Shown here: in pieces, positions 16,331 through 20,229 of the stretch | How positions within the stretch are numbered: the stretch's first letter is position 1 | How the letters are laid out: each line of letters starts with the position of its first letter | NCBI GenBank assembly: GCA_043739185.1 | Contig: JAYUEN010000050.1 | Location: 1 to 22,052 of the forward strand | Source: Bdellovibrionales bacterium | Lineage (GTDB): Bacteria; Bdellovibrionota; Bdellovibrionia; Bdellovibrionales; JAMPXM01 | DNA length: 22,052 nucleotides | Direction: 5' to 3' | The notes under the pieces: model-generated | Told to the model about the DNA's origin: nothing | Seen by the model: the letters and a program-made list of their open reading frames with translations, nothing else | The model's database searches: none | Translations under genes and position numbers: made by a program

Positions 16331-16870
16331 ATGAATCCCAGAAATCAAATTCAATCATCTTGGACCAGCATTCCTGAAGAATTTTCGTTCAAAGTATTAA
16401 ATGCCCTCGAGGCTGAATTCGCTAAACAGGCCAAGGCAGGTGAATTCATTGTCGAGGGAAAGATTTTTGATAACGAGATTTTGATTCGTATAGGCTACCT
16501 CGAAAGAGGCCGCCTACGTCAGATTAACTTTGAAGCCTCAGTCGATTATGATCGAGAAAGCTCTGAAATTCTCGATAGTTTTTACCTTTGCGTTGATTCC
16601 CTAGGCCTTTGGATGCATGAGTATTTTGAAAAGGCCGAACAAGATGAAGATCAGGATTTACCTCTGACTTGGCGGCCCGCTGAATTTAAAAATAATACTG
16701 TTTTTATGCAATTTAGCACGGTCAATTCAAGGCTTGAGCAAGAGGCAGATCGAATTTTGGGAATGAGCTCGAGCGCTCTTTTCAACGAAGAAATTGCTGG
16801 GGAAGACGCCTTCGAACACGCGATCATTGACCCTGATCTCTCAAGTGAAAAAGACCAGAGTACTCATTAA
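16331..16870 (+). CDS. Acidic cytoplasmic hypothetical protein (179 aa)
   Basis: GAGG SD before the ATG; globular composition; no recognised motif. Confidence 0.8.
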   Translation: MNPRNQIQSSWTSIPEEFSFKVLNALEAEFAKQAKAGEFIVEGKIFDNEILIRIGYLERGRLRQINFEASVDYDRESSEILDSFYLCVDSLGLWMHEYFEKAEQDEDQDLPLTWRPAEFKNNTVFMQFSTVNSRLEQEADRILGMSSSALFNEEIAGEDAFEHAIIDPDLSSEKDQSTH

Positions 16871-16970
16871 TTGAAAATTTCAGTATCGAGCATCCCGGTT
16901 TCGATAAACGACAGCAGAATCAGATTCTAGCTTCATGAACTGATTTTGTTTCCCCATCCTCACTAGTGCT

Positions 16971-17039
16971 TCGTTTCCCCCCAACATGACGCAAAAACCT
17001 CATGATGCCGTATACCAACGTCATGTTGGGGGAAAACGA
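16971..17039. repeat. 21-bp inverted repeat with 27-nt spacer
   Basis: TCGTTTCCCCCCAACATGACG (16971-16991) and CGTCATGTTGGGGGAAAACGA (17019-17039), 20 of 21 positions complementary. Confidence 0.9.
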
Positions 17040-17130
17040 TCCTATTACGCCCAACCGAGACCGAAACTGCCAATCGGTTAACAGCTGCTGCTGCCATAAA
17101 AAGAAGACTGCTCCCTAGCCAAGATCTAAG

Positions 17131-17162
17131 TTTTTAGCCAAAAGCCATAAAATGGCTAAAAA
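17131..17162. repeat. 10-bp inverted repeat with an alternative inner stem
   Basis: TTTTTAGCCA..TGGCTAAAAA; AGCCAT-AAA-ATGGCT competes for the same 3' arm. Confidence 0.6.
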
Positions 17163-17258
17163 GTGCCAAATTTGGGCTCACTGATTATAAATTTATCACG
17201 GTAGTACTGCTGAATTTAATCTGAGTTTGGCTTAATTATTGAAATTCGGCAATGTTCT

Positions 17259-18080
17259 ATGAAATTTTTGAGCGCCTTTTTAATTGCAAGTTTTTGCCTT
17301 ATTTCCTTGAGCGCAAATGCTCAAGATCGTTGCGAAGCGCTTTTTTCAATTCGAAACAGAAAACCAAGCGAACTCACACAGGTAAAAAAGGCCACATTAA
17401 AGCTCATGGGCGAGGATCATATACTTAACGCCAATGCCAATACCTTGTTTAAAAGTCGAGGTGAGGAGTCCAAGCAGCTTCTTGAAAACAGCATTGAAGT
17501 TGATTTTTTTGAAGCCAGTCCCTTTGGCCACGCTTATCTACGCATTGGGGATCGCCGCCTTTCATTTGATATGCCAGGTATTGTGAGATTCGAAACCTAT
17601 GATCCAGCTACTTATGTTCGCAGCGGTCATTTTGGCGCCCTTATCTTTGTTTCTAAAAAGAGAATTCAAAAACTTCTACCTGAAATTTTGAGATTTTATA
17701 CCTCTGCCAGCCTCTTTAATGTTCCACCAATGGATTCTTATGCTCCTGAAGTTGAACTCATTAAGGATCCAAAAGGAAGTTGGCAATTTCAAACACCCTC
17801 AACTGGTTATTATGCAGCCAAATCAGATTTTTTCGGAATCCCTGTTTTAGATGGCCCAAATCCACATATTGCAACTGTGAATGGCCTCGAAATTCCGCTA
17901 ATAGTAAAACCAGATGGTCGCATATACGTTCAAAGCTATTCATGTTCGAGCTCAGTCTCCTATATTTTAGAACAATTTTTTGGAGTTCGAATAATGGGTG
18001 TATCAGCAATGCTGGTAGGGGCTCAAATCTTGAGTGGTAAACTTGGCCCGGTGATTGATTACAACCGAGGTCCCAATTGA
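17259..18080 (+). CDS. Exported protein, probable permuted papain-like (NlpC/P60 superfamily) Cys hydrolase
   Basis: Signal peptide ending ANA; PFGHAYLRIG (His91) precedes YSCSSSVSYIL (Cys229), the His-before-Cys order of permuted papain folds. Confidence 0.65.
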   Translation: MKFLSAFLIASFCLISLSANAQDRCEALFSIRNRKPSELTQVKKATLKLMGEDHILNANANTLFKSRGEESKQLLENSIEVDFFEASPFGHAYLRIGDRRLSFDMPGIVRFETYDPATYVRSGHFGALIFVSKKRIQKLLPEILRFYTSASLFNVPPMDSYAPEVELIKDPKGSWQFQTPSTGYYAAKSDFFGIPVLDGPNPHIATVNGLEIPLIVKPDGRIYVQSYSCSSSVSYILEQFFGVRIMGVSAMLVGAQILSGKLGPVIDYNRGPN

Positions 18081-19327
18081 AATTGATGAAGCTATTTTTT
18101 TCGTTTTTCGTTGTTATTTTAACTGCCACCGCAGTACGCAGTGAAAATTTATGTCTAGATTTATTTCAAGGCCTTTCAAAGAGCACAGCCTATGCTCTTG
18201 GCATACAAGAACCTGGTTATCAAATAACCTATGGTTTAGAAGTCGAGTTCAACCCCCACAGCAAAAATCAACAAATTCTCAATGACTATCGACCAAAATA
18301 CTTCTCAGAAACACAGTGGCTCAGACTTTCACATGCAGAGCGTGCCTCATACTATGAGCCCGGCACCACAAGCTCTGAACGAGTATTGGTTCGAATGAAT
18401 ACTGCTCCGAAGTGGATGCCTGATAGTTTAACTAAAGAGGCCTATGAGGCGACTGGCCCAAAAATGATTTTTGGGGAATTCAATAAATTACAGCAAACTC
18501 TTAGAGACATGGAAGCCCGCTATGGGCGGGGCGCAGCTCAAGTGCATGTGGTTTTCCCGACTGATGCTAGACTCAAAGGAAATGCTGGTTTCATTGGCTT
18601 TTCAGGCGAAATGGCGCAGCTAAAGAATTTAGAAAATGGCTATGAAAAATATCTTAAGGATCCAAATAATATTCCTGGCAAAAACTTCGAACATAAAGAT
18701 CTTGCGACCATCGATAATGGTGTCATTAACTTAACTCGCGGGAGCGAACATTCGATATTTCATTGGCAAAGCCAAAGATGGATATTGGCCATGAAATTTT
18801 ATTTTTCAACGGTTTTAAGAGCAGGCATCTATGGGGACTTCGATCACGCCGGCTATGAGCATAGGCAATTCAACTACGATTACGATGGCCTTTTGGCTGA
18901 AGTCTTTCGTACGACTTTGATGCTCGAAAAAGGTATTATTAAAGAATTTGCGCCCTTTGATCGAAATTTCAAATATACTCCCCTTAAAAGATTAATGGCA
19001 AAAGATTCAGCCAATAAAGAAATCTGGCAAAGTTTCTTAGCTATAAAATCGGAGCTCAATTCCTTTCTTTTTGGATTTAGAAATTGGTCAGAACATCCAA
19101 TTCTAGATCTGCTTTCAAATGATGCCAAGGAAGAGAAAAAAGCGCTCATATCTCAAGCGCAAGCGGAACTCTATTTAGAATTTACTGAGATTTTAAACGA
19201 GAATAATGAAGCGTCTTTGCGTAGAAAGAAAATGCGCATTGCAATTGCGAAATTTGCACACAATGTGCAGCTTGGTAGTTTATTTGATCAATTTTACAAC
19301 CAAGCTCTTAATAGTAATAAAAACTAA
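18077..19327 (+). CDS. Exported protein, probable amidoligase-like COOH-NH2 ligase (glutamine synthetase / glutamate-cysteine ligase fold); alternative start ATG 18086
   Basis: Signal peptide; TYGLEVEF, YEATGP, AQVHVVF and GYEHRQF match in order the GxExE / E-x-x-SP / HVH / EFR motifs of Amidoligase_2. TTGA overlap with the upstream stop, and GAGG SD. Confidence 0.65.
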   Translation: MKLMKLFFSFFVVILTATAVRSENLCLDLFQGLSKSTAYALGIQEPGYQITYGLEVEFNPHSKNQQILNDYRPKYFSETQWLRLSHAERASYYEPGTTSSERVLVRMNTAPKWMPDSLTKEAYEATGPKMIFGEFNKLQQTLRDMEARYGRGAAQVHVVFPTDARLKGNAGFIGFSGEMAQLKNLENGYEKYLKDPNNIPGKNFEHKDLATIDNGVINLTRGSEHSIFHWQSQRWILAMKFYFSTVLRAGIYGDFDHAGYEHRQFNYDYDGLLAEVFRTTLMLEKGIIKEFAPFDRNFKYTPLKRLMAKDSANKEIWQSFLAIKSELNSFLFGFRNWSEHPILDLLSNDAKEEKKALISQAQAELYLEFTEILNENNEASLRRKKMRIAIAKFAHNVQLGSLFDQFYNQALNSNKN

Positions 19328-20229
19328 AATTCGTCGTCGTCTCGAGTCGTGCCGCCTTCGCTCGACATTCCACGTACTTCTTCGATAAATGACTGTGCTT
19401 CGTCTTCAAGATCGTTTTCTCCTGAATTATCATCTAACTCAAGTTCTTGAATTGCATTTAAAAAGTCTTTTTCGCTTCTCAAGTCTTTTCTTAACATTTC
19501 TAAATACTTATCTGGATATCTTGCGGTCAATTCTTCAACGTAACGCTCTAGTTTTCCTTCAGTTAAAATCTTCTTACGAACTTGAATTTTCTTCCAGAAA
19601 AGCAGGTAGTGATATCTGCAATAGGCATCTACACTTGAAATCTGATCACAATCTTTGACTCGGCAATATCTTCGACCTTCAGCATCCGTTAAAACAACTT
19701 CTTCGTCATTGTATTCGCGTTTGGCTTCAACCGGAGCGTCTTCAATTTTCTCTTCTTCAACAACTTTTTTTGCAGTCTTTTTAAGGGCTTTTTCTGATTC
19801 AAGTTTTTCAGCAGGAATCTTTTTAGTCTTCTTAGCTGTCTCTAAATTAGTCTTTTCTGGAAAAGCACTCTTCGTTTCAAGCTTAGTTTTTGTTAACAGA
19901 TCTTTTTTACTAGTTTTGGCGACTTCAATAAGTTTTTTTGGAACTTTTGCAATAGTGGGCTTAGGTGAACTTTTTTCGACTTTTACGACAGCCTTTTTAA
20001 TGGGCTTTGCCGCAACCACCGGAGACGACTTCTTTGCTGGCAGCTTTTTGGTAGCGGGCTTTGCCGGGCTCTTAGTCGCTGCTTTCTTGGCCGCAATTAC
20101 GGGCTTCTTTTCAGCCTTTTTATCAGCTTTTTTGAGTTTTGATTTGACGAGTGCTTTAAGTACTTTTTTGATTTTTTGCATAGGCGTGAATGATTGTTTG
20201 AAATCCTTATCTGAGTCAACAAAAATCAA
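19324..20229 (-). CDS. Protein with Lys/Ala/Pro-rich histone-H1-like N-terminus, C-x4-C-x9-C-x2-H zinc finger and acidic tail (true start probably ATG 20181)
   Basis: AKKAATKSPAKPATKKLPAKK tract; YCRVKDCDQISSVDAYCRYHY; D/E-rich C-terminus. Confidence 0.8.
   Translation of the reverse strand: MIFVDSDKDFKQSFTPMQKIKKVLKALVKSKLKKADKKAEKKPVIAAKKAATKSPAKPATKKLPAKKSSPVVAAKPIKKAVVKVEKSSPKPTIAKVPKKLIEVAKTSKKDLLTKTKLETKSAFPEKTNLETAKKTKKIPAEKLESEKALKKTAKKVVEEEKIEDAPVEAKREYNDEEVVLTDAEGRRYCRVKDCDQISSVDAYCRYHYLLFWKKIQVRKKILTEGKLERYVEELTARYPDKYLEMLRKDLRSEKDFLNAIQELELDDNSGENDLEDEAQSFIEEVRGMSSEGGTTRDDDEF

Follow-up and report, generated by a model that had tools for sequence, protein, structure and literature searches.

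A coupled pair of predicted exported enzymes with permuted papain and ligase-like folds in a Bdellovibrionales bacterium, and its fused relatives

Two overlapping genes in a Bdellovibrionales bacterium, likely a predator, raise the question of whether a putative ligase and a putative cysteine enzyme, both apparently exported, belong to one functional module, and what such a module might do outside the cytoplasm. The window analysed here is the whole of a 22,052-nucleotide stretch (contig JAYUEN010000050.1, assembly GCA_043739185.1), and the genes in question are open reading frame (ORF) A (17259..18080, + strand, 273 amino acids (aa)) and ORF B (18077..19327, + strand, 416 aa from a TTG start). 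An earlier note, made from the sequence of the window alone, had read the first as a papain-like hydrolase and the second as an amidoligase-like ligase. Our data indicate that ORF A is a circularly permuted papain/NlpC-P60 cysteine enzyme, that ORF B belongs to an unnamed family with a likely GS/GCS (carboxylate-amine ligase)-like fold, and that homologs of the two co-occur, often as fusions rather than as mere neighbours, so that their juxtaposition is not a matter of chance.

The overlap between the TGA stop of ORF A and the TTG start of ORF B (TTGA, 18077..18080, + strand) was confirmed in the sequence. An alternative in-frame start of ORF B, ATG 18086, is used by the database gene call (P0003, 413 aa), and residues of ORF B are numbered here from that ATG. 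Coupling of the two genes is tight with either start, the TTGA overlap being one of two options.

Conserved residues and predicted folds of the two proteins

The His91..Cys229 dyad proposed for ORF A is present in the sequence and invariant in all 37 aligned relatives, which came from a paralog in this genome and from profile searches of genomes. E80, R95 and G97 are invariant in the same alignment, E80 being a candidate third polar catalytic residue. In the structure model of ORF A (pLDDT 85) the predicted catalytic His91 (codon 17529..17531, + strand) lies at the start of a beta-hairpin, on strand 91-96, and the predicted nucleophile Cys229 (codon 17943..17945, + strand) at the N-terminus of helix 229-241. 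The top structural matches among 48,161 chains were TseH (Z 10.3, 133 aligned residues, 3.0 Å), YiiX (Z 8.0), 3kw0 (Z 7.9) and DeSI (Z 5.4), and the TseH match strongly supports the papain-like fold claimed for ORF A, in its permuted form. TseH (PDB 6v98) and YiiX (2if6) are only 14-17% identical to ORF A; along with 3kw0 of B. cereus, Tox-Act1 and Lnb_N (DUF4105), they share with it the fold, the order of His before Cys and the placing of Cys at a helix start. As judged from the model, ORF A is a permuted NlpC/P60 enzyme of a subfamily named PAP1 here. It differs from the enzymes just named in having a signal peptide instead of type VI delivery, in the lack of an immunity gene in its slot and in being tied to a ligase-fold partner.

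Standard family searches recognised little of this. No Pfam family matched ORF A or its paralog at E<=1 (TseH, Peptidase_C92, LRAT and Lnb_N included), Foldseek gave no match to the PDB at E<=0.001 for either ORF, and an NCBIfam scan of both returned a single irrelevant match (E 0.02). Word-based searches recovered ORF A alone, even with a 13-row alignment, within a length range of 125-644 aa, which the fused forms found elsewhere exceed. One paralog of ORF A is encoded in the same genome (E 1e-7), as the second gene of another coupled pair (L003:328-3407, G000:C117) whose first gene specifies an IucA/IucC-like protein of 657 aa with a signal peptide and C-x-x-L-F at its C-terminus. Relatives occur in 44 of 401 genomes; in the two closest (L074 and L075) the next gene resembles the papain hairpin with the His absent, at weak scores (E 0.15 and 0.32; profile probability 11%).

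The ligase motifs claimed for ORF B are likewise present. E52, E54, Q152, R245, E258 and R260 occur without exception in the 72 aligned members, the first two forming an E-x-E motif of predicted metal ligands (18239..18247, + strand) and the last two an E-x-R motif (18857..18865, + strand), and D/E118 and E121 are kept in 71 of the 72. The order ExE, two further acidic residues, Gln, Arg, ExR is that of GS/GCS ligases, as mapped to GS/GCL catalytic residues. The model of ORF B was built from 11 sequences and has a pLDDT of 75, with low confidence at residues 106-126. Its best structural match reaches Z 6.6 at 5.0 Å, below the clear level of 8, with Dop and PafA tied at the top; of the 50 rows listed, 12 align at least 168 residues, and every one of these is Dop, PafA, YbdK, a glutamate-cysteine ligase or a relative of glutamine synthetase. 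The ligase-type fold is thus moderately supported by this Z score, and we consider a GS/GCS (glutamine-synthetase/Pup-ligase)-like fold likely for the modelled protein. ORF B probably shares this fold over ~200 residues, and has the ExE/ExR set in common, with PafA (4bjr), Dop (9cku), YbdK (1tt4) and glutamate-cysteine ligase (2gwc), whereas none of the Pfam families of that superfamily matches it and its own family mostly carries signal peptides. To our knowledge, the known ligases of GS/GCS fold are cytoplasmic and require ATP.

ORF B matched no Pfam family, Amidoligase_2, COOH-NH2_lig, GCS2 and Pup_ligase included, and for the 72 family members none of these four was among the best 25 of 29 Pfam families listed, at E up to 1. 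No family of ligase kind was listed for the 72 members against PHROGs, searching the PDB by sequence with two ligase profiles yielded no relevant match, and in this genome PF12224 has no match and PF04107 matches a different gene. Feature neighbours of ORF B in the Atlas were COOH-NH2_lig, GCS2 and Amidoligase_2 at 0.86-0.87, as leads only. In a profile comparison of the family with the single GCS2 protein of the genome only the ExE strand aligned (probability 0.6%). As judged by eye, the gene of that protein (L072:422-3759) is flanked by one gene resembling an ATP-grasp ligase and another resembling an N-formylglutamate amidohydrolase, a further ligase/amidase neighbourhood that is apparently cytoplasmic. 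As regards pupylation, a Pfam scan of 18 genes of the window gave no match for Pup or for a proteasome or ATPase gene of such a system; neither short ORFs nor the genome outside the window were searched for Pup.

The loop E118-E121 bears on whether the module, while real in relatives, is decaying in the ligase copy of this genome. The loop is short in this one of the 72 aligned members, it falls within the stretch of low model confidence, and four of the eight strain variants within ORF A and ORF B alter the protein. All six invariant residues are nevertheless kept, both frames are intact, and the short loop recurs without indels in contigs of further sequencing runs, so that we regard decay as highly improbable. 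The locus lies in one contig without indels in two of four runs and in near-identical pieces in the other two, all four coming from one study and two possibly being the source of this DNA itself.

Export was predicted from the N-termini. A rule-based test called a signal peptide in both and in none of six control genes from the window, in line with the signal peptides noticed before. The predicted signal peptide of ORF A comprises residues 1-21 (17259..17321, + strand) and ends in A-N-A, and C-x-x-L-F opens the mature chain; that of ORF B spans 18077..18142 (+ strand), and the protein also has a C-x-x-L-F motif. Across full-length members of the ligase family the test was passed by 84 of 116 in its strict form (483 of 1296 background frames) and by 99 of 116 in its loose form (654 of 1296), although the test is a rough one and a signal peptide is clearly absent from some members. 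A subclade around P0107 and P0130 mostly lacks signal peptides, includes two proteins with an N-terminal HAD phosphatase and is possibly a cytoplasmic version. A signal peptide followed by C-x-x-hydrophobic-F gave 64 crude matches, some of them false, among the 4061 genes of the genome, and the motif gave 15 at control positions 70-100; a like neighbour was found for 7 of 63 such genes against 2% in shuffles. Because genes of this kind are common and mildly clustered, adjacency alone is weak evidence for a functional link. The same motif stands at the C-terminus of some proteins and is also found on exported nitrilase, DmpA and glutamate-synthase-like proteins of relatives; it is possibly a trafficking or folding tag.

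Linkage of ligase and papain-type domains in relatives

A profile made from 11 relatives of ORF B matches 313 clusters at 50% identity and finds the family in 51 of 401 genomes of the phylum, and a 72-row profile finds it in 24 of 301 genomes of the order. Both domains are united in a single 709-aa frame at locus L048, which is 29% identical to ORF A over 209 columns (E 4e-25) and 27% identical to ORF B over 388 columns (E 2e-36). Strong relatives of ORF A (E<1e-20) were found in 11 of the 400 other phylum genomes, where nine are fused to the ligase, one lies directly upstream of a ligase gene in the order seen in the window and one stands alone; four weak matches (E 1e-4 to 9e-4), long proteins with no ligase match in the locus, were excluded. 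Ligase co-occurrence was expected by chance in 1.4 of these 11 genomes and observed in 10, a comparison in which kin are not independent.

Seen from the ligase, 71 of the best 150 representatives carry a long extension, and in 68 of the 71 this includes a papain-like domain of His..Cys type. The extensions comprise PAP1 (25), a second papain type (24), a third papain type (13) and an Lnb_N-like type (6), besides one nitrilase and two cases of phospholipase D (PLD). The third type was recognised by eye and then aligned, and the Lnb_N-like domains were assigned by Pfam in five cases and by eye in one. The four papain types match each other remotely (profile probability 2-38%). His and Cys are kept in 25 of 25 PAP1 and 13 of 13 third-type domains, and in 20 and 21 of the 25 aligned pieces of the second type. 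A scan of 46 long proteins among the best 150 showed peptide deformylase (7), aldehyde dehydrogenase (2) and HAD (2) as extra N-terminal domains, as well as PLD (2) and nitrilase (1). The seven deformylase proteins (P0101, P0116, P0120, P0122, P0131, P0148 and P0150) have three parts, deformylase, ligase and PAP1, most with a signal-peptide-like start, and one is from Elusimicrobiota; an exported peptide deformylase is odd.

Adjacency complements fusion at the level of loci. Among the 30 best ligase loci of the phylum 15 are fused, 9 (the window included) have adjacent genes and 6 show no papain match within 1.5 kb, and the corresponding numbers for 20 loci of the order, whose genomes are partly shared with the phylum set, are 7, 6 and 7. 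One further locus, L025, was dropped as a chance match in a high-GC contig. A ligase tree of 131 rows, rooted at the midpoint, left out 19 of the 150 representatives that were truncated or had no ExE pattern and included two closer relatives. In this tree ORF B falls in a small unfused clade (support 0.98), whose sister clade (0.96; jointly 0.998) consists of 24 PAP1, 6 Lnb_N-like and 2 PLD fusions and one unfused protein. The other papain types belong to other clades, so that partner type tracks the ligase tree, and ORF A is of the same type, PAP1, as the domain fused in the sister clade of ORF B. As far as sequence comparison can tell, the window encodes as two separate genes a module that many relatives have in fused form.

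Unfused copies at L012, L014, L015 and L031, in several families, stand in a conserved cluster of amide-acting enzymes with signal peptides, which comprises one or two nitrilases, a DmpA (S58) peptidase, a BPL_N GATase-like protein and up to four tandem papain-type genes around the ligase. At L016:4245-6251 (-) a phospholipase D protein seemingly carries the C-terminal helical part of the ligase alone.

It could be argued that the two proteins are independent effectors, linked or fused purely for joint expression and export and sharing no substrate. The abundance and mild clustering of exported genes with C-x-x-hydrophobic-F would agree with this, as would the filling of the slot by other genes in one congener and the occurrence of each partner without the other. 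Fusion is highly selective, however, given the near-exclusive choice of papain-like domains by multidomain ligases, and a weak papain-profile match was seen in only 2 of 29 IucA-like loci, although the profiles came from ligase loci and this control is therefore biased toward a shared pathway of the kind set out below. We regard independence as quite unlikely.

Candidate roles of the pair outside the cytoplasm

Our best explanation, a tentative one that we put no higher than possible, is that the ligase and a cysteine acyl-transfer enzyme act in sequence, outside the cell, on one envelope lipid or amine. It starts from the observed coupling and recurrent fusion and from the conserved catalytic residues and folds; every enzymatic step is inferred. 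Both proteins would leave the cytoplasm by the Sec route. With metal and ATP, ORF B would convert a glutamate-like carboxylate into an activated acyl-phosphate and join it to an amine, as ligases of GS/GCS fold do, and ORF A would form an acyl-thioester on Cys229, by which it would either free the amine or acid for the ligase or move a fatty acyl group onto the ligase product. The likeliest class of substrate would be a membrane lipid or lipid-linked amine, of the prey or of the bacterium's own envelope, the overall outcome would be a novel lipid or lipopeptide with an amide link, and the source of ATP would have to be the prey compartment.

This sequential scheme is preferred because the folds nearest to ORF A act on lipids, because Lnb_N and PLD fusions lie in the sister clade of ORF B, and because the add-on domains could supply amines or acids. 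Permuted NlpC/P60 members have a hydrophobic pocket for lipids and are described as lipid-acting; Tox-Act1 cleaves phosphatidylglycerol and phosphatidylethanolamine, TseH showed phospholipase activity in one of two assays, and both are antibacterial effectors (PMC12994826). In that account, the closest solved or characterised relatives of ORF A act on lipid acyl bonds and not on peptidoglycan or isopeptides (PMC12994826), and the permuted group is said elsewhere to include deubiquitinases and desumoylases as well (PMC10318531). Lnb_N is a lipoprotein N-acyltransferase domain, and its presence in the sister clade, with that of PLD, supports sequential action. The deformylase, aldehyde dehydrogenase, PLD and nitrilase add-ons would supply amines or acids.

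Several observations weigh against this scheme. The ligase fold scores below Z 8 and has no Foldseek match, the hydrolase Dop ties with PafA, and the E118-E121 loop of ORF B is shorter than in the other 71 aligned members. The solitary relative of ORF A (L059) has no ligase; the paralog of ORF A has its stop/start overlap with a different gene, an IucA/IucC-like one (Pfam E 0.0025, which falls short of the cut-off); and no papain match lies within 1.5 kb of the ligase at the 6 phylum and 7 order loci counted above. At the nearest relatives of ORF B (8 loci from one Bdellovibrionaceae lineage, 33-39% identity) the ligase gene is not adjoined by a papain gene of any of the four types; in four of five of these loci that were read, a gene YiiX-like by eye but with no Pfam match lies ~1.8 kb upstream. 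Finally, ATP is scarce outside the cytoplasm.

That last difficulty would disappear if ORF B were a Dop-like amide hydrolase and the pair a small cassette of exported digestive hydrolases with no ATP turnover. Dop heads the structural matches together with PafA (Z 6.6), it shares the fold of these ligases but works without ATP turnover (PMC3511204), and nearly all fused and adjacent partners are hydrolases. The family nevertheless retains the full acidic/Gln/Arg set typical of ligases, and the same genomes also encode IucA/IucC-like proteins with signal peptides, by which exported ligases of ATP type appear to exist in this group. A purely hydrolytic pair is in our judgement unlikely.

The earlier note had favoured a module that makes and breaks amide or isopeptide bonds outside the producer's cytoplasm, and of this the folds, the linkage (often as fusion) and, by the N-terminal sequences, export have held up. 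The paired making and breaking itself is less well placed: the nearest relatives of ORF A are lipid-acting, and the swapping of partners among four papain subfamilies and other hydrolase folds fits sequential action or a hydrolytic cassette at least as well. In its explicit form, ORF B would be a writer, placing a gamma-glutamyl-type amide or isopeptide on a target, and ORF A the eraser that takes it off again, in reversible marking or a cap-modify-release route. A ligase and a cysteine amidase in one chain form the layout of glutathionylspermidine synthetase/amidase, DeSI, an isopeptidase, is among the fold matches of ORF A (Z 5.4) and PafA among those of ORF B (Z 6.0), and the aldehyde dehydrogenase fusions recall the gamma-glutamyl-putrescine route. 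An eraser, on the other hand, should be specific, yet partners range over four distantly related papain subfamilies and nitrilase, with DmpA or GATase-like proteins encoded nearby; the closest fold matches of ORF A act on lipids; and a fused, co-exported eraser would cancel its writer unless regulated, while no regulator was seen. A writer and eraser has precedent but fits exchangeable partners less well than sequential action does, and we think it improbable.

That precedent is provided by glutathionylspermidine and trypanothione synthetase/amidase, cytoplasmic enzymes in which an ATP-grasp ligase is combined with an unpermuted CHAP amidase; like the fused relatives of our pair, they unite an amide ligase with a cysteine enzyme of papain fold in a single chain. 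ORF A differs in having His before Cys, ORF B in that its long structural matches are of GS/GCS type and not ATP-grasp, and both in being predicted to be exported; the order of the dyad and the GS/GCS-type matches set the pair apart from such an enzyme. The pairing of ligase with amidase as such is already a known kind. Iyer et al. (2009) reportedly described gene neighbourhoods of amidoligases and peptidases, with COOH-NH2 ligases beside amide-cleaving enzymes, and we know of no exported version fused to permuted papain domains among them. Phage clusters with an amidoligase, a COOH-NH2 ligase and amidotransferases have also been described (PMC6209634). In Bdellovibrionota, two-gene secreted effector systems couple CapCone-2 to a hydrolase or an acyltransferase and are proposed to act on prey membranes; like our pair they consist of side-by-side exported enzymes in predators, but, as they are presented there, their folds differ and no ligase-fold partner is included (PMC12419801). 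A further report was set aside as concerning an ATP-grasp enzyme (PMC12632600).

Literature searches, judged by titles and the beginnings of abstracts, showed no description of a ligase plus papain module, although Iyer et al. 2009 or its supplements may list the family. Records of the fusions are labelled as a hypothetical protein (Bacteriovorax sp. Seq25_V, WP_021274018.1) or, in Elusimicrobiota, named after the add-on domain (MBI3551334.1). An exported GS-fold family with exchangeable permuted-papain partners appears to be undescribed.

The enzymes that predatory bacteria secrete are generally taken to be hydrolases. The 313 clusters of the ligase family, in about one-eighth of the phylum genomes sampled and mostly with signal peptides and four kinds of papain partner, suggest that predators form bonds outside their own cytoplasm too. 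A bolder proposal, which we consider doubtful, is that predatory Bdellovibrionota export a family of GS-fold ligases that depend on ATP, each paired with a cysteine acyl-transfer enzyme of exchangeable type, into an ATP-holding prey compartment, where they would write amide-linked marks on prey lipids or proteins, and that C-x-x-L-F after the signal peptide would mark cargo for a second export step shared by dozens of enzymes. If true, this would define a class of bond-forming predator effectors, in contrast to the degrading enzymes known so far; it would tell in which places predators can draw on ATP as they feed, and a lipid or protein modification not seen before might come to light. These ideas are open to testing, as a record of the fusion exists for the named strain Bacteriovorax sp. 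Seq25_V and all the predicted catalytic residues have been located.

The variable slot and its surroundings

The pair lies in a variable slot between two convergent core genes (16871..19323). Both flanking genes were found in all five relatives tested, ~39 and ~75 bp apart in two congeners and ~200 and ~650 bp apart in two family members, while in a third congener they are 3.35 kb apart and the gap is filled by other genes. Neither ORF A nor ORF B was found in the three congeners searched (88-100% complete). Because the width of the slot varies and these congeners lack both ORFs, the pair is an accessory cassette. Its GC content is that of the window.

The neighbouring genes looked core-like at first reading, and Pfam identifies a radical SAM/TRAM enzyme, IMP dehydrogenase, GMP synthase and DNA polymerase III alpha among them. 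The stop of ORF B overlaps that of the convergent gene 19324-20229 (-) by 4 nucleotides (nt), and a scan of 16800-19700 found no terminator-like site on the + strand, both as originally noticed; a single such site lies on the - strand, within ORF B. Promoter-like sites are at chance level (7 found against 6.2 expected), and Rfam has no match anywhere in the window. Gene 19324-20229 has a low-complexity N-terminal half rich in Lys and Ala and, at its C-terminus, a cluster of Cys and His with 91-95% identity in congeners; it has no credible Pfam or NCBIfam match. Gene 16331-16870 (+), divergent from the radical SAM gene, encodes an acidic protein of 179 aa that has no Pfam match and is kept in five of five relatives tested.

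The spacer upstream of ORF A had been described as hairpin-rich, and it does fold better than shuffled sequences (z -4.75). Its hairpins are not specific to the pair, however, since the spacer holds two genome-wide repeats, a hairpin repeat and a 50-nt element; a role of these hairpins as a dedicated regulator was rejected for this reason, and the spacer is uninformative on the pair. The long hairpin spans 16974-17039, and its portion ~17000-17045 is repeated at roughly a dozen other sites of the genome. The element of ~50 nt at 17053-17102 has 127 profile matches in the genome, varies mainly at every third base and often lies near inverted copies; it may be a REP-like element or a tiny ORF. 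Downstream of 7 of the 127 copies, the next gene is a C-x-x-F gene on the same strand.

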